From an uncultured Mycoplasmatota bacterium (lineage in GTDB: Bacteria > Bacillota_I > Bacilli_A > RF39 > UBA660): a stretch of DNA of 64,000 nt. Within the stretch, counting starts at the first letter, position 1, and each line of letters opens with the position of its first letter. The notes beneath the pieces were generated by a model, which was not told where the DNA came from, did not search any database, and worked only from the letters and a program-made list of their open reading frames with translations. The stretch lies in NCBI GenBank assembly GCA_946497955.1, contig CAMMMH010000004.1:12314-76313 (forward strand), written 5' to 3'. The position numbers were made by a program, and so were the translations under genes. Shown in pieces: positions 3,457 to 60,315 of the stretch.

Positions 3457-4191
3457 ATGACTAAAAAAGTTTTAATAACAGGTGGAGGAACAGGTATTGG
3501 AAAAGCTATTGCAAAAGCATTTTATGAAAAAGGTTATGAGGTATATATTTTAGGTAGAAGAAAAGAGAAACTAGAAGAAGTCTGTAATGATACTAATAAT
3601 TCTATTAATTATTTTATCTGTGATATTAGTAATAATAACGACATTAAACAGATTATAAATGAATTAAATAATATTGATACCTTAATAAATTGTGCAGGGA
3701 TAATTAGTAGTGGTGAAGAAAAAGAAAAATATGATTATTTTGAATTAAATAATATTATTGATACTAATCTAAAAGGAACTATAAGTATGTGTTTGCAGAT
3801 AATTGATAAATGGAAAGAAAACAACATTAAAGGAAATATAATTAACATTGGTTCAATAGTAGCGAATAATGGTTCAAAATATTTTCCTATTTATTCAGCA
3901 AGTAAAGCAGGAATAATTGCTTTTTCAAAATCTATTGCTTCTAGATATGGTGAACTAGGTATTAGATGTAATGTTATTTCTCCAGGTGTTATAAAGACTC
4001 CAATGTCATATATTGAAACTCCAGACTTCGATAATTATATAGAAGATATAGAAAATAATACCCCATTAGGACGTTTAGGTAATCCTGATGATATAGCAAA
4101 GGTAGCCTTATTTTTGGACAGTGAAAATTCTCTATTTATAACAGGCCAAGATATAATAGTAGATGGTGGTTATACACTAAGTCAAGAATAA
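3457..4191 (+). CDS. SDR family oxidoreductase
   Basis: 'ITGGGTGIGKAIA', 'NCAG' and a canonical 'YSASKAG' (YxxxK) motif. Confidence 0.85.
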   Translation: MTKKVLITGGGTGIGKAIAKAFYEKGYEVYILGRRKEKLEEVCNDTNNSINYFICDISNNNDIKQIINELNNIDTLINCAGIISSGEEKEKYDYFELNNIIDTNLKGTISMCLQIIDKWKENNIKGNIINIGSIVANNGSKYFPIYSASKAGIIAFSKSIASRYGELGIRCNVISPGVIKTPMSYIETPDFDNYIEDIENNTPLGRLGNPDDIAKVALFLDSENSLFITGQDIIVDGGYTLSQE

Positions 4192-4240: not shown

Positions 4241-5044
4241 TCAGTTAACAGTTTTCTTTTGTATAAATTTCTCAAGTAAACAAATAAGATAATAGAATAA
4301 GAAAGCTAAGACACCTAGAACAATAACAGAAGCAATGACAAGGTCTATATTAAATACTTGAGTACCATACATTATTAGATATCCAAGTCCTTTTTTTGAT
4401 ACAAGCAATTCCCCCATTATGACACCTATATAGCACATGCTCACATTAATCTTAAGATTATTAATAATATTAGATAGATTAGAAGGAATAACTGCCTTCA
4501 TAAATATCTGTATTTTACTAGCACCTAAACTTCTAAGTAAAGTAATATAGTTACTATCAGTTTCTTTAAAATTATGATAAACATTTATAATAGACAAGAA
4601 TAAAGAGATTAATAAAGCCATAAAGATAATAGAATTAGTACTAGCACCTACCCAAATAATAATTAAAGGTCCAAGTGCCACTTTAGGTAGAGAATTTAAA
4701 ACAGTTAAATAAGGATCAAGTATCTTCGCTAATCTCTTAGAAAACCAAAATAGAGTAGAGACTAACAAGGAAATAATTGTAACTACTAAAAAGCTAACTA
4801 CTGTCTCATATAAAGTAATACCTATATGTACTAATAAATCATTATCAGTGAATAGACTTCCTAAAGTTTTAAGTACTAGACTAGGACTAGATAAAAGAAA
4901 AGTATTAATAAGATTAAATCTTGCTAATAGTTCCCATCCTAAAATGAACACTAGTAATATTAATATTTGAAAACTAATAACAATAATTTTTTCTCTTTTT
5001 TTCTTTCTTAAAAATTCTTTATGTTCCATACTATAACTTGACAT
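4241..5044 (-). CDS. ABC transporter permease (NitT/TauT / SsuC-like family)
   Basis: About six hydrophobic segments and an EAA-like loop 'SLGASKIQIFMKAVIPS'. Its start overlaps the stop of the upstream ATPase fragment. Confidence 0.8.
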   Translation of the reverse strand: MSSYSMEHKEFLRKKKREKIIVISFQILILLVFILGWELLARFNLINTFLLSSPSLVLKTLGSLFTDNDLLVHIGITLYETVVSFLVVTIISLLVSTLFWFSKRLAKILDPYLTVLNSLPKVALGPLIIIWVGASTNSIIFMALLISLFLSIINVYHNFKETDSNYITLLRSLGASKIQIFMKAVIPSNLSNIINNLKINVSMCYIGVIMGELLVSKKGLGYLIMYGTQVFNIDLVIASVIVLGVLAFLFYYLICLLEKFIQKKTVN

Positions 5045-34739: not shown

Positions 34740-36227
34740 ATGGAAGGAAAAAATAAGGAATTATTAGAGCAGTTAATGGAAAAAACAAAATCAACAGCTC
34801 TTACACTTTTTGATGATGATGTCGACCTAAGTTGTCTGATTGGAAGAATTTATTTATTGCTAGAAGACGTAGTTGAGGATAAACATTCTATAAAAATGGA
34901 CCTATTTGAAGAGTGTTATAAATATTATACTGATTATTATAAAGAAAAGAAAGAAGCTTTAGAGAAAGAAAGTACAAAAGAAGAAAAAGAAAACAAAAGT
35001 GAAGCAGTAGCTAGTAGTGTAGATGGAAATAAAGGAAAAAATGAAGTTGAAGTTAATGTTAATAATCAAGTAGATTATATTCCTGTGGATTGGCAAGGCT
35101 CTATTTATGGTGATAATGGGTTCTTTTCTGAATTTAGTAGTATGGGATATAATAAGCACTTGTACCATGTTGCTAATATAGGTAATGCTAAAAATAATGT
35201 TAAGATTTATTATGATGCGAATAATAAAGAAACACCTTACATATTAGAAGTACCTTTAAAACAAATTCAAAATAGAATTTGTACTCATAAGGATATGGAA
35301 CGTGGAGGACATAAATATAATTACTTACGTTTTAGGCTACCTAAATCTATAGTAAACAGTAATTTATCACTTAGTATAGATAGTAAACTACATTTATTAG
35401 ATGGTAGTGATTTATATGATGCTCTTCATGATGCAAATAAAAGTCATCACGGCATAGATAATGAAATGAAACAAATTATGTTACCTTATTCTAATAGAGA
35501 AATAAAGAAACCATCAGAATATGATTTAACTTTTTCTAAAATATTAAAAGAATATTTTTATGATGATGCTGACGTTGTTGACAACTGGTATGCCCGTTTA
35601 TTTAATTCACTTGAGGAAATAGGTTTTAGTGATGTTGAATCAAATTTAATGATTAATGTAATAAAAAGTAATGATATCCCAACTTTAGATGTCAAAGATG
35701 CAATATATTTAAGTAATATTTTAGAAGAAAGTAATATTAATTTTATGATAGGAATTAATGTTGAGCCTCAGTCTAAAAACACAATTAATTTGAAACAAAT
35801 AGCTCGAGCAAATTATGATGTTTCAAAAGGATTTGACGAAAAACAAAACTATGGCAATCTTACCAGAGGTTATGGAAACTGTTCTTATCCTGTTTTTAAT
35901 ATTAATACTGGACCTAGTATAGACAATGCTTTAGTTTTGACATTAGAAAATGGTTTAAGTTCTAAAGAAAATATAGAAGCATTCTATTATCATATTCAAA
36001 ACTATGATGTAAAAAAACTTATGGAAGAAGTTATTAAAGGAAGATATTATGGTAATAAAAATAAGATAGAGACTATTGAATATTGGTATAACAGATATTT
36101 AGAAGTTGAAAATAAGGTTGCTAAACATCTAGAAGAGTTATATCAAGCTAAATATGGTATGAGTTTTGTAGGAGAAGAGAATATTAAATCTACTACTTCA
36201 AAAGAAAGTGGTTTTACTCATCGTTAA
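34740..36227 (+). CDS. hypothetical cytoplasmic protein (495 aa), orphan
   Basis: Stand-alone unit with its own extended -10 (TGTTATAAT, ~34640), an AAGGAG SD and a strong terminator. No motif recognised. Confidence 0.55.
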   Translation: MEGKNKELLEQLMEKTKSTALTLFDDDVDLSCLIGRIYLLLEDVVEDKHSIKMDLFEECYKYYTDYYKEKKEALEKESTKEEKENKSEAVASSVDGNKGKNEVEVNVNNQVDYIPVDWQGSIYGDNGFFSEFSSMGYNKHLYHVANIGNAKNNVKIYYDANNKETPYILEVPLKQIQNRICTHKDMERGGHKYNYLRFRLPKSIVNSNLSLSIDSKLHLLDGSDLYDALHDANKSHHGIDNEMKQIMLPYSNREIKKPSEYDLTFSKILKEYFYDDADVVDNWYARLFNSLEEIGFSDVESNLMINVIKSNDIPTLDVKDAIYLSNILEESNINFMIGINVEPQSKNTINLKQIARANYDVSKGFDEKQNYGNLTRGYGNCSYPVFNINTGPSIDNALVLTLENGLSSKENIEAFYYHIQNYDVKKLMEEVIKGRYYGNKNKIETIEYWYNRYLEVENKVAKHLEELYQAKYGMSFVGEENIKSTTSKESGFTHR

Positions 36228-37699: not shown

Positions 37700-38041
37700 A
37701 TGTTATTTAATAATCAAGCTATCGATATGAATTCTACTATCGATGGTAATAATAATGTCGTTGACCAAGATATGAATATTGATATCAATATGAACAATAA
37801 TAGTATGGGAATGGGCCAAAATAATATGGAAATGATGGATAGCCAATCTCCAATCATTGAACCAGTACAAGAGCGTCAAATAAATAGAACTTTCGTTCAT
37901 CAAGTACCTCACGTATGCCCAATCCATACAAGAATAGTTAATCATCACATTTTCAAACATACTTATTGTCCTAGATATACTTGCTGTGAAGAAAATGTTT
38001 GTTGCAATATTGACCAAGGTTCATGTTGTAACTTTCGTTAA
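37700..38041 (+). CDS. cotD: CotD-family spore coat protein-like
   Basis: The C-terminal half 'IIEPVQERQINRTFVHQVPHVCPIHTRIVNHHIFKHTYCPRYTCCEENVCC' fits the His/Pro/Cys-rich CotD pattern. The N-terminal half is Asn/Met-rich. Confidence 0.6.
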   Translation: MLFNNQAIDMNSTIDGNNNVVDQDMNIDINMNNNSMGMGQNNMEMMDSQSPIIEPVQERQINRTFVHQVPHVCPIHTRIVNHHIFKHTYCPRYTCCEENVCCNIDQGSCCNFR

Positions 38042-38044
38042 AAG

Positions 38045-38067
38045 CCAAGATAACCATCTTGGTTTTT
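38045..38067 (+). terminator. rho-independent terminator
   Basis: Stem CCAAGAT / ATCTTGG, loop AACC, then TTTTT. Confidence 0.7.
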
Positions 38068-38081
38068 ACATGACTAAATTT

Positions 38082-38103
38082 AAAATTATCAATTGATAAT
38101 TTT
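38082..38103. promoter_or_regulatory. perfect 22-bp palindrome overlapping the -35 of the toxin-antitoxin promoter (candidate operator)
   Basis: AAAATTATCAA|TTGATAATTTT. TTGATA (38093-98) serves as the -35, and TATTAT (38116-21) follows after 17 nt. Confidence 0.6.
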
Positions 38104-38139
38104 AATATCTTATGTTATTATAATTACAGGTGATGAATA

Positions 38140-38460
38140 TTGGATGTTACAGCAATAATAAATTTATTACATAAGTCAGTCTCTAACAAAGATTATGATT
38201 TTGTTCCTACTGCTAAAAATAGAAACTCTAGAAGAAAATATGGACTAACTTTGTATGATATTGAAGATTTTTTAAAATCTATTACTGAGGAAGATTTAGT
38301 AAGTGGACCAGAGATAGATAGAGATATGCCTAGTGAAAAAGTATATATTTTCATGAAAGAAATAATTACAGGAGTAACTTTCTATGTTAAAATAAAAAAA
38401 GATAGTAAAGTTACTTATGATAGGATAAAAATATTATCTTGTCATGAAGCTGAGTATTAA
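38140..38460 (+). CDS. MqsR-family toxin-like protein
   Basis: TTG start after an AGGTGA SD. '...LTLYDIEDFLKSITEEDLVSGPE...KVYIFMKEIITGVTFYVKIKK...IKILSCHE' parallels the MqsR layout. It lies upstream of an MqsA-type HTH gene. Confidence 0.55.
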   Translation: MDVTAIINLLHKSVSNKDYDFVPTAKNRNSRRKYGLTLYDIEDFLKSITEEDLVSGPEIDRDMPSEKVYIFMKEIITGVTFYVKIKKDSKVTYDRIKILSCHEAEY

Positions 38461-38475
38461 TTAGGAGGGATTACC

Positions 38476-39423
38476 ATGAAAAATAATAACTTAAGAGTTA
38501 GAAAAGTCAAAGTGCAAGTTAAAGACAAAATTATTTCTTATGATGAGTATTATTTAGTAGATGAATTTGGTGAAGAAATATTTAATAGAGAGATAGAAAT
38601 AGAAAATGATAATAGATTATATAATACTTATAAAAAACAAAAAAACTTATTAACAAGCACAGAAATAAAAGAAATAAGAAAAAAATACGGATTAACACAA
38701 AAAGAATATGCTTTTATTATAGGAGTGGGCGAAATAACTATTCATCGTTTTGAAAAAGGAGCGATTCAAACAGAAGCAGTTGATTCTATAATGAGATTAT
38801 CAAATAATCCTAATAATATGTATTTTCTACTTTTGAAAAACAAAAATAACATAACCGACTCATTATATAAATCAACTTTAAATAAAGTACAAGAATTAAT
38901 GACATTAAAGAGACATGAACTTATAGATATAAATGCATTTGATAAAAAACTATTATCCTTTAAAGAAGAGAATGCAATTGATGTAGCAGAAAATATTATA
39001 AAAATATATAACGAAAAAGTTGATAAATTGGTAAAAGAATATAATATTGTTCCTGAATATATAACCAATTTAAAATTACAAAAATTATTATATTATGTTC
39101 AAGCTATTAGTTTACAAGTCTTTGAAAAACTAGCTTTTAAAGAAAAAATAATGGCATGGTCATATGGGCCGGTTGTGAATGAAGTATATCAAAAATACAA
39201 AGAAAATCATAGCAATGAAATTAAAATTGACGGAAAAGTTAAAAAAATATCAAGTGGTTTAGAAAAAGTAATTAATGAAGTTATCGATAGTTACGGAAGT
39301 ATGGAGGCAAACAAGTTAATTGATTTTACCCATGAGGAAGAACCATGGAAAAATACAGAAATAAATAAAGAAATTAAAACAGATATAATAAAAGAATACT
39401 TTAATAAAGTTTATGAAGTTTAA
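38476..39423 (+). CDS. MqsA-like HTH antitoxin fused to a Panacea (DUF4065/SocA-like) domain
   Basis: 'LLTSTEIKEIRKKYGLTQKEYAFIIGVGEITIHRFEKGAIQTEAVDSIMRLSNNP' is an MqsA-type XRE HTH, with no Zn-binding cysteines. The C-terminal 'LKLQKLLYYVQAISLQVFEKLAFKEKIMAWSYGPVVNEVYQKYK' is the DUF4065 hallmark. Confidence 0.75.
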   Translation: MKNNNLRVRKVKVQVKDKIISYDEYYLVDEFGEEIFNREIEIENDNRLYNTYKKQKNLLTSTEIKEIRKKYGLTQKEYAFIIGVGEITIHRFEKGAIQTEAVDSIMRLSNNPNNMYFLLLKNKNNITDSLYKSTLNKVQELMTLKRHELIDINAFDKKLLSFKEENAIDVAENIIKIYNEKVDKLVKEYNIVPEYITNLKLQKLLYYVQAISLQVFEKLAFKEKIMAWSYGPVVNEVYQKYKENHSNEIKIDGKVKKISSGLEKVINEVIDSYGSMEANKLIDFTHEEEPWKNTEINKEIKTDIIKEYFNKVYEV

Positions 39424-39531
39424 ATATTAATAATATATTCTTATTTACATGTTAAAAAATGTCTAATTATGTCATATCACTTGTAAAATATTCTTTATAA
39501 TTATAAGATAATAATAAGGAGTGTGATACAA

Positions 39532-39738
39532 GTGAATTATCCATCTATTGATAAATTACTTAATATTGTAAGTTCTAAGTATGAATTAGTTCATATCGCT
39601 GCAAGACGTAGTAAAGAAATGACTAAAGATGAACACTATCAACTAGCCTTAAACCAATATAAATGTGAAAAAAATATTGGTAGAGCCTTAGAAGAGATAT
39701 TAGAGGGAAAATTAAAAGTAGTTGAAAAAGAAAACTAA
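39532..39738 (+). CDS. rpoZ: DNA-directed RNA polymerase subunit omega
   Basis: 'YPSIDKLLNIVSSKYELVHIAARRSKEM' is the RpoZ pattern. The start is uncertain (GTG 39523 or GTG 39532) after an AAGGAG SD. Confidence 0.8.
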   Translation: MNYPSIDKLLNIVSSKYELVHIAARRSKEMTKDEHYQLALNQYKCEKNIGRALEEILEGKLKVVEKEN

Positions 39739-39742
39739 TAAG

Positions 39743-39778
39743 AAACACATATCACAGTTTGGTATGTGTTTTATTATT
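39743..39778 (+). terminator. rho-independent terminator
   Basis: Stem AAACACATA / TATGTGTTT, then TATTATTT. Confidence 0.7.
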
Positions 39779-59956: not shown

Positions 59957-60315
59957 CGATTTGGGTGTTTACACCAAAATCGTAATTAATTACATTGTTT
60001 AATTTACTCTGAACTATTTAGTTGTCTTCTTAGTTATTGGTTTCCCGATATCAGCAAAATGTTTTAATAAGTTGTTAGTCCAATGGTTTTTACTATTTTG
60101 GTGTTTACACCAAAATAGTAATTAATTGAATTATTTGTTTTATTAAGTATCTAAACTATTTAGTCGTTACCTTAATTATTTGCTTCCCGACGTTGGCAAG
60201 CCAATCTACTCATTTTGTTACTTTAGTCAATACTGACCATTTTTCCGACGTCGGAAAAATGGTTTATAAGTCGTTAATACAACGGTTTTTACTATTTTGG
60301 TGTTTACACCAAAAT
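59957..60315. repeat. array of repeated hairpin/palindrome modules in a convergent intergenic region
   Basis: The hairpin CTATTTTGGTG-TTTA-CACCAAAATAG occurs three times (59957-82 degenerate, 60093-118, 60292-315). It is interleaved with three CCGA..TCGG-type palindromes (60039-61, 60182-201, and a perfect 26-bp one at 60237-62). Confidence 0.85.

Follow-up and report, generated by a model that had tools for sequence, protein, structure and literature searches.

A toxin-first MqsR-like/HTH-Panacea gene pair with a cysteine-free MqsA-type domain and a conserved promoter palindrome in an uncultured Mycoplasmatota bacterium

The 64,000-nucleotide (nt) stretch analyzed here (the window; contig CAMMMH010000004.1, positions 12,314 to 76,313, of an uncultured Mycoplasmatota bacterium) carries two co-directional genes, separated by 15 nt, between a gene for a CotD-like protein and rpoZ (Table 1). 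The original prediction described them as a toxin-first cassette, in which an MqsR-like toxin of 106 amino acids (aa) faces a 315-aa antitoxin that joins an MqsA-type helix-turn-helix (HTH) to a Panacea domain, and this description is borne out by Pfam, NCBIfam, Foldseek, and 87 of 127 scanned relatives of the toxin. In our reading, held with moderate confidence, the pair is a chromosomal type II toxin-antitoxin (TA) module of the known MqsR:PanA class, in which the N-terminal antitoxin domain would neutralize the toxin and the HTH would repress the operon through a promoter palindrome. The analysis documents the domains present, the fold, the family relationships, the occurrence of the pair in unrelated contexts, and the conservation of the operator. 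Judged from sequence, the feature that differs from the known class is a zinc-free, N-terminally shortened MqsA-N domain; the toxin subfamily, too, has diverged further and is made up of shorter proteins.

The C-terminal region of the antitoxin matches Pfam SocA_Panacea (PF13274) at aa 201-292 over the entire model (positions 1-113 of 113; 1.1e-19, 71.8 bits, cutoff 25.7), and the Panacea motifs LKLQKLLYYVQA and AWSYGPVVNEVY are both present. The NCBIfam equivalog SocA_antitoxin (NF047745) is matched only partially (67.2 bits, cutoff 190), indicating that the protein is not a SocA equivalog, and the full-length family in PHROGs is phrog_10390 (7.5e-49). The NCBIfam 'MqsA family' TIGR03830 ('CxxCG_CxxCG_HTH') scores 71.4 bits (cutoff 61.8), with the match starting at aa 28 and limited to model positions 34-122 of 127. 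Pfam MqsA_antitoxin (PF15731) is borderline at aa 32-101 (30.2 bits, cutoff 30), and HTH_3 is also matched. PDB profile matches of the HTH fall on the MqsA HTH (3fmy, 3gn5) and on PezA, and no other antitoxin domain is as well conserved across loci as the HTH (mean 76.6% identity). A Foldseek search of PDB with the full-length antitoxin model returned no match at E<=0.001, only short HTH matches (HigA2, C.Esp1396I).

The antitoxin contains no cysteine at all, which bears out the earlier remark that the four zinc-binding cysteines of MqsA are absent, and it therefore lacks the four-cysteine (two CxxC) signature of the MqsA family. The same holds for the N-terminal domain in 120 of 120 listed homologs and in the antitoxins read from related loci. 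Brown et al. (2009) described the four MqsA cysteines as 'perfectly conserved' and MqsA-N as two long twisted strands plus a five-turn helix (PMC2791442). The predicted secondary structure of the antitoxin fits this pattern, in which the strands and the helix precede an HTH-XRE domain: the AlphaFold2 (AF2) model places strands at residues 6-15 and 18-28 and an 18-residue helix at 38-55 ahead of the HTH, with a predicted local distance difference test (pLDDT) value of 75-88 for the block. A canonical CxxC...CxxC MqsA-type antitoxin, which adjoins a remote toxin relative in related locus L042, aligns to the window antitoxin without gaps (33% identity, 128 residues, E 2e-23); C43 and C46 of its second knuckle fall opposite V28 and F31, and the first knuckle has no counterpart. 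These alignments indicate that the N-terminal domain is homologous to the zinc-binding domain (ZBD) of MqsA. Across the related loci examined, the cysteine-free domain shows 42-100% identity, retains its length, and has many invariant residues. The clade so defined consists of uncultured gut Bacilli whose MqsA-N, having lost both CxxC knuckles, is predicted to keep the fold and whose toxin has His at the position of E. coli K96. It comprises >160 sequence clusters for the toxin and >380 for the antitoxin, the majority of them from metagenomes of the gut.

For the toxin, an AF2 model (pLDDT 95.9) was compared with PDB using Foldseek, and E. coli MqsR (3hi2_B and 3hi2_D) took ranks 1 and 2 (TMq 0.64-0.67, TMt 0.72-0.73, root-mean-square deviation 2.5-3.1 Å, prob 1.0, E only 7e-3), followed by ParE, YoeB, and BrnT toxins. 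A profile search of 1.84 billion representatives gave 309 remote relatives, 127 of which were scanned; the 87 relatives counted above match Pfam MqsR_toxin (PF15723) at E<=1e-3 (best 8.4e-10), and relative P0246 (45% identical) has a precomputed PF15723 match. The broadened profile A3 found 3hi2_B (MqsR) as its top PDB match (E 0.0076, near full length). Three independent lines, from sequence and modeled structure, indicate that the toxin belongs to the MqsR branch of the RelE superfamily. Among the 127 relatives, which share 22-51% identity with the window protein, K84 and H102 are invariant, and N27, G56, P57, D60, F71, Y82, and S100 are nearly so. E. coli Y81 aligns with Y82 and E. coli K96 with the invariant H102, K56 aligns with the variable S55, and Q68 lies in an E. 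coli-specific insertion. Catalytic equivalence to E. coli MqsR is therefore no more than plausible. A sub-cutoff match of the toxin to Pfam 'Pox_B6' (E 3.7e-4) was put down to composition. PADLOC left the toxin without a match and gave the antitoxin only generic HTH or RmrA-like matches, and no named defense system is supported.

Upstream of the toxin gene, the original prediction had placed a 22-bp perfect palindrome overlapping the -35 element. The palindrome is in fact 26 bp long, whereas the overlap stands: the -35 hexamer TTGATA belongs to its right arm, in a promoter that scores 10/12 for -35/-10 with the TG present. In 200 first-order Markov simulations of the window (27% GC), a perfect palindrome with arms of >=13 nt arose in 5 (2.5%), and by length alone the 26-bp palindrome is only modestly unusual in the window. 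The case for an operator is made by comparative conservation rather than by length. In 40 of 40 related loci, the 12-bp core TATCAATTGATA is present in exactly one copy; it always precedes the toxin gene, typically lying 30-41 nt before the start codon, in intergenic DNA that is otherwise unrelated between loci. Both arms change symmetrically in L001, L025, and L028, from AATTATCAA/TTGATAATT to AACTATCAA/TTGATAGTT (symmetric core variant ACTATCAATTGATAGT), and a few loci carry one-arm changes. The palindrome is the highest-information non-coding block in the comparison of related loci, across which the -10 box and the 17-nt spacing are also kept. The palindrome is therefore the predicted operator for the antitoxin HTH. 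Further operator copies in the window (3 matches with <=2 mismatches, 2.7 expected) are at chance level, and therefore no regulon is evident there. In E. coli, the palindrome that serves as operator is of another kind (ACCT/AGGT type) than TATCAATTGATA.

Related sites also occur in more distant cassettes. The core ACCATCAATTGATGGT precedes the toxin gene of the Marinitoga phage MPV1 cassette (L047 1380-1500), and the promoter palindrome AGTATCAATTAATACT is found in a C. difficile plasmid cassette (L044 650-805). The half-site ATCAAT/ATTGAT may be recognized by the HTH subfamily of this antitoxin across phyla. With respect to translation, the toxin starts with TTG or GTG in about 60% of related loci (TTG in the window, at 38140), and the antitoxin nearly always has ATG and a strong Shine-Dalgarno sequence. 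This contrast is consistent with a translational bias toward the antitoxin in a toxin-first operon.

The two genes recur together in >40 loci with unrelated flanks, separated by gaps of 9-20 nt or joined by short overlaps in nearly all of them. Their contexts include cotD-rpoZ (six Onthousia-like genomes), sigE-holA, a serine-recombinase element, and others. In the six Onthousia-like genomes, both genes are intact, 92-100% conserved, and bordered by the same flanks, which argues that the cassette is stably maintained at cotD-rpoZ. Distant versions are found on Marinitoga phage MPV1 (annotated as 'putative toxin' and 'putative antitoxin') and on B. thuringiensis and C. difficile plasmids; the B. 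thuringiensis plasmid pair is named 'MqsR family toxin' and 'antitoxin SocA domain-containing protein' by PGAP. The MPV1 antitoxin (L047 1830-2848) is annotated as two open reading frames (ORFs), a 63-aa single-CxxC MqsA-N-like piece and an HTH-Panacea protein, which may reflect a frameshift or a natural split of the neutralizing domain.

A cotD homolog or its 3' fragment flanks the cassette in related loci L001-3, L015-19, L023, and L045-46. In L045 and L046, an element of ~5.1 kb splits a cotD-like ORF near codon 71 (L045 6036-11432; the same as in L001; also in L046 and L015). The element encodes a GNAT acetyltransferase, Fic, a 58-aa ORF, a 521-aa large serine recombinase, and the TA pair, and the antitoxin stop codon lies ~20 nt from its right junction, which makes the TA pair terminal cargo. 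In L045, an ORF of 46 aa ending ...FYHEIPQE remains from the 5' part of the split cotD-like gene, whose 3' part (HVCPIHTH...) resumes straight after the antitoxin. The L045 element resembles recombinase-excised elements that interrupt sporulation genes in Bacillus. In L017, the cotD 3' end and terminator (165-225 bp, near-identical) occur as three direct repeats (1006-1223, 3732-3897, and 4585-4810), which bracket a segment with a Ham1-like gene, a 160-aa ORF, and the MqsR-like/PanA pair, and a second segment with MazE/MazF; this arrangement suggests that insertions occurred one after another at a single position within cotD. From these sequence arrangements, the cotD-like gene looks like a recurrent insertion target, or hot spot, for the cassette in relatives.

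These observations raise the possibility that the module is mainly addiction or anti-phage cargo of a cotD-targeting mobile element and that the window copy is a stranded remnant without current host function. The split cotD-like ORF with the TA pair at the right end of the element, the repeats that bracket TA and MazEF cassettes in L017, and the related pairs on phage MPV1 and plasmids all favor such an origin. However, the window encodes no recombinase, the antitoxin is not followed by a duplicate of the cotD 3' end, and a search for direct repeats flanking the cassette gave short chance matches only; nothing points to a recent insertion in the window genome. Since the cotD-like gene is also intact, the window cassette appears to be a stable resident at an apparent hot spot, and its maintenance in the six Onthousia-like genomes does not suit a stranded remnant. 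We regard the cargo explanation as a doubtful though real possibility, and it is compatible with, rather than exclusive of, the neutralization and repression mechanism favored here. Judging by the best matches of its proteins, the window derives from Candidatus Onthousia excrementipullorum or from a very closely related uncultured member of the Bacilli. In a Ca. Onthousia excrementipullorum metagenome-assembled genome that is otherwise 99% identical (L010 3350-5000, corresponding to window ~39460), an IS66-family transposase of 485 aa lies on the minus strand between the antitoxin and rpoZ, with inverted ends and flanked by duplicated TTAAAAAA.

Pairs of this class have been recognized before. 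Kurata et al. (2022) found MqsR-like to be the most frequent recognizable PanT domain (n=90) and HTH in 343 PanAs, cited a 2013 chapter in which DUF4065 was already noted as an alternative MqsR antitoxin, and listed in Dataset S1 a group labeled 'T2, MqsR superfamily', which is toxin-first, has HTH-PanAs, and counts Marinitoga piezophila among its members (PMC8832971). Ernits et al. (2023) validated MqsR:PanA pairs of B. fungorum and L. rossiae, described as 'Panacea; ZBD (MqsA); HTH', and proposed a sensory role for Panacea (PMC10440598). The earlier view that the hybrid architecture was undocumented does not hold, as it has been catalogued (PMC8832971), validated (PMC10440598), and named by PGAP on Bacillus plasmids. 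The window pair shares with the Bacillus fungorum and Lactobacillus rossiae pairs and the T2 group the toxin-first order, an MqsR-fold toxin with a C-terminal ...S-[FC]-H-E motif, the antitoxin order (MqsA-N-like domain, XRE HTH, C-terminal Panacea), and a palindrome in the promoter. The Bacillus and C. difficile plasmid relatives read here keep both CxxC knuckles, whereas the window clade has none and lacks the first knuckle altogether; their toxins have 131-139 aa, compared with 106 aa for the window toxin, which lies below the Pfam threshold. One of the two validated PanAs, that of B. fungorum or that of L. rossiae, may also lack the cysteines.

E. coli MqsR/MqsA (3HI2, 3GN5) has the same toxin-first order, a RelE-like toxin fold (TM about 0.7), and Y81 as the equivalent of Y82; its MqsA is built from an N-terminal two-strand-plus-helix domain, the fold predicted for the window antitoxin, and a C-terminal HTH-XRE that binds the promoter. 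By comparison, the window system has no zinc site, an additional Panacea domain, and His in place of K96, and it does not conserve K56 or Q68. Two other antitoxin domains, PAD1 and the pseudo-zinc-finger of CapRel, are also cysteine-free, have a zinc-finger- or ZBD-like topology, neutralize toxins, and are in some cases fused to Panacea; the likeness considered here is one of topology, and both partner toxSAS toxins rather than MqsR. SocA/SocB, the type VI TA system with the founding Panacea protein, has the Panacea domain in common with the window pair, but SocA is a proteolytic adaptor without HTH or MqsA-N (PMC8832971), and the SocB toxin is unrelated to the window toxin.

In the mechanism proposed here, the 106-aa protein would act as an MqsR/RelE-fold endoribonuclease, with toxicity and RNase activity predicted from its relatives. 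The MqsA-N-like domain would bind and neutralize it through a two-strand-plus-helix fold without zinc, and a dimer of the MqsA-type HTH on the palindrome would occlude the -35 element and repress the operon. The weak TTG start of the toxin, set against the strong Shine-Dalgarno sequence and ATG of the antitoxin, would tend to keep the antitoxin in excess. For the Panacea domain, a part as platform for regulation or sensing is more likely than one in neutralization.

Several points weigh against this interpretation. Pfam MqsR (PF15723) gives the toxin only 15.5 bits (cutoff 26.2, E 0.024), so that of the two profile searches suggested in the original prediction, the one for Panacea exceeded its cutoff and the one for the toxin fell short; NCBIfam gives the toxin no match. 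The narrow toxin-family profile A1 found chance matches only among PDB sequences (ITPR2, E 0.28), and the MqsR link therefore needed a broader profile and a structure search. Only the tyrosine is identical among the four E. coli toxicity residues (K56, Q68, Y81, and K96). The full-length antitoxin model is moderately confident (pLDDT 76.3), with two of the five models near 47-50. All cysteines are gone, and with them the first zinc knuckle, the site of the secondary interface with MqsR in E. coli, so that the N-terminal domain might bind weakly or not at all. Finally, for the MqsR:PanA pair of H. frisingense, expression of the PanA gave no rescue in E. coli (PMC8832971).

Taken to their limit, the three non-conserved toxicity residues and the sub-threshold MqsR similarity would allow the pair not to be a TA system, with the 106-aa protein being non-toxic and serving an HTH-Panacea transcription factor as its RelE-fold partner or co-regulator; eight PanTs were indeed non-toxic in E. 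coli (Kurata et al., PMC8832971). We consider this highly improbable. The invariance of K84 and H102 and the near-invariance of Y82, N27, D60, and S100 argue for a conserved active site, and relatives of the protein match Pfam MqsR and carry annotations as toxins of the MqsR family. In addition, the homologous B. fungorum and L. rossiae systems are toxic and neutralized (PMC10440598), and tight two-gene mobility is typical of TA modules.

A further question is which part of the antitoxin neutralizes the toxin. The original prediction assigned this role to Panacea, and the same gene pair could work in that way, with the N-terminal domain vestigial after losing zinc and the first knuckle. Panacea can neutralize directly in some PanATs (PMC10440598), the antitoxin lacks cysteines and the first knuckle, and the secondary interface in E. 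coli uses MqsA residues 2-7. However, in the closest tested homolog, that of B. fungorum, the ZBD or ZBD-HTH neutralizes, and Panacea or HTH-Panacea does not (PMC10440598), so the assignment is probably wrong. The cysteine-free domain, with its conservation, many invariant residues, and confident hairpin-plus-helix, is unlike a decaying vestige, and its strong conservation in the clade argues that its function is kept. The loss of zinc is by itself no argument for lost function, because zinc-free versions of the fold, PAD1 and the cysteine-less CapRel pseudo-zinc-finger antitoxin domain, neutralize elsewhere. Neutralization by Panacea is therefore judged unlikely. When per-domain identity was compared with toxin identity, all antitoxin domains tracked phylogeny (r 0.77-0.89), and the toxin-binding domain was not singled out.

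Beyond this favored reading, in which the N-terminal domain neutralizes, a more speculative scenario can be drawn. The clade may represent a natural metal-independent MqsA-N fold, and the loss of the zinc knuckles may have passed neutralization to Panacea or tied toxin release to a cue sensed by Panacea. Separately, the TA pair may police the excision or retention of an element that interrupts a sporulation gene. This scenario is rather improbable.

The flanking genes named in the original prediction fared unequally. Downstream, rpoZ is solid (TIGR00690, 55.6 bits), whereas the 'cotD' label upstream is weak, as the match to Pfam Spore-coat_CotD is sub-threshold (E 0.06, 14.3 bits, cutoff 22). 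The hairpin that follows the cotD-like gene is likely its terminator, judging from the arms and T-run, and would insulate the cassette promoter; a terminator scan left it uncalled because G-C pairs are too few. Between the antitoxin and rpoZ (window 39424-39535), the same scan found no site, its sole call lying past rpoZ at 39742-39772, and rpoZ may receive read-through TA transcription. An imperfect inverted repeat of 28 nt (39477-39504 and 39508-39535, 79% complementary) covers the ribosome-binding site and start of rpoZ.

Table 1. Features of the cassette and its neighbors (window coordinates).
Feature	Position	Strand	Basis or remark
Upstream neighbor, His/Cys-rich CotD-like small protein, 113 aa	37700-38041	+	Weak Pfam Spore-coat_CotD
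Hairpin, 13-nt arms, 92% complementary, 4-nt loop, then T-run	38039-38068	+	Inverted-repeat scan and sequence
Perfect palindrome, 26 bp, TTAAAATTATCAA/TTGATAATTTTAA	38080-38105	.	Predicted operator for antitoxin HTH dimer
Promoter-like site	38093-38121	+	-35 TTGATA 38093-38098, 17-nt spacer, TG-extended -10 TATTAT 38116-38121
Toxin Shine-Dalgarno AGGTGATG	38128-38135	+	Sequence; GGTGAT kept in related loci
Toxin gene, 106 aa	38140-38460	+	TTG start, C-terminus ...IKILSCHEAEY
Toxin, divergent MqsR/RelE-superfamily protein, 106 aa	38140-38460	+	AF2, Foldseek, remote relatives
Antitoxin Shine-Dalgarno AGGAGGG, strong	38463-38469	+	Sequence
Antitoxin gene, 315 aa	38476-39423	+	ATG start
Antitoxin aa 1-57, cysteine-free MqsA-N-like domain, predicted toxin-binding	38476-38646	+	AF2, TIGR03830, alignment
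Antitoxin aa 58-125, MqsA-type XRE HTH, predicted dimerization and DNA binding	38647-38850	+	Pfam HTH_3, MqsA_antitoxin
Antitoxin aa 126-195, helical linker, least conserved segment (mean 52% identity)	38851-39060	+	
Antitoxin aa 196-315 and stop, Panacea (DUF4065/SocA) domain	39061-39423	+	PF13274
Downstream neighbor rpoZ	39523-39738	+	TIGR00690, 55.6 bits

Elsewhere in the window, the longest palindrome is a perfect 28-bp one at 60236-60263 (ACCATTTTTCCGAC/GTCGGAAAAATGGT); arms of 14 nt were reached in 1 of the 200 Markov simulations. For a 495-aa ORF at 34740-36227, which lies upstream of ffh, Pfam gave no match at E<=0.001, and an Rfam scan of the whole window gave none at gathering thresholds.

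Collectively, these results add little to the cataloguing of TA systems, because MqsR:HTH-Panacea pairs are known, validated, and automatically annotated. Their value lies in a natural clade free of zinc ligands, which offers a comparison for what zinc gives MqsA in stability and toxin binding. In addition, the clean invariant operator core, together with the highly conserved HTH and the related core in a Thermotogae phage, provides a ready model for DNA recognition, and the insertions at cotD seen in relatives hint at the way in which cassettes of this kind spread among uncultured Bacilli of the gut. If true, a metal-independent MqsA-N would contradict the view of the four cysteines as universal and structurally required.

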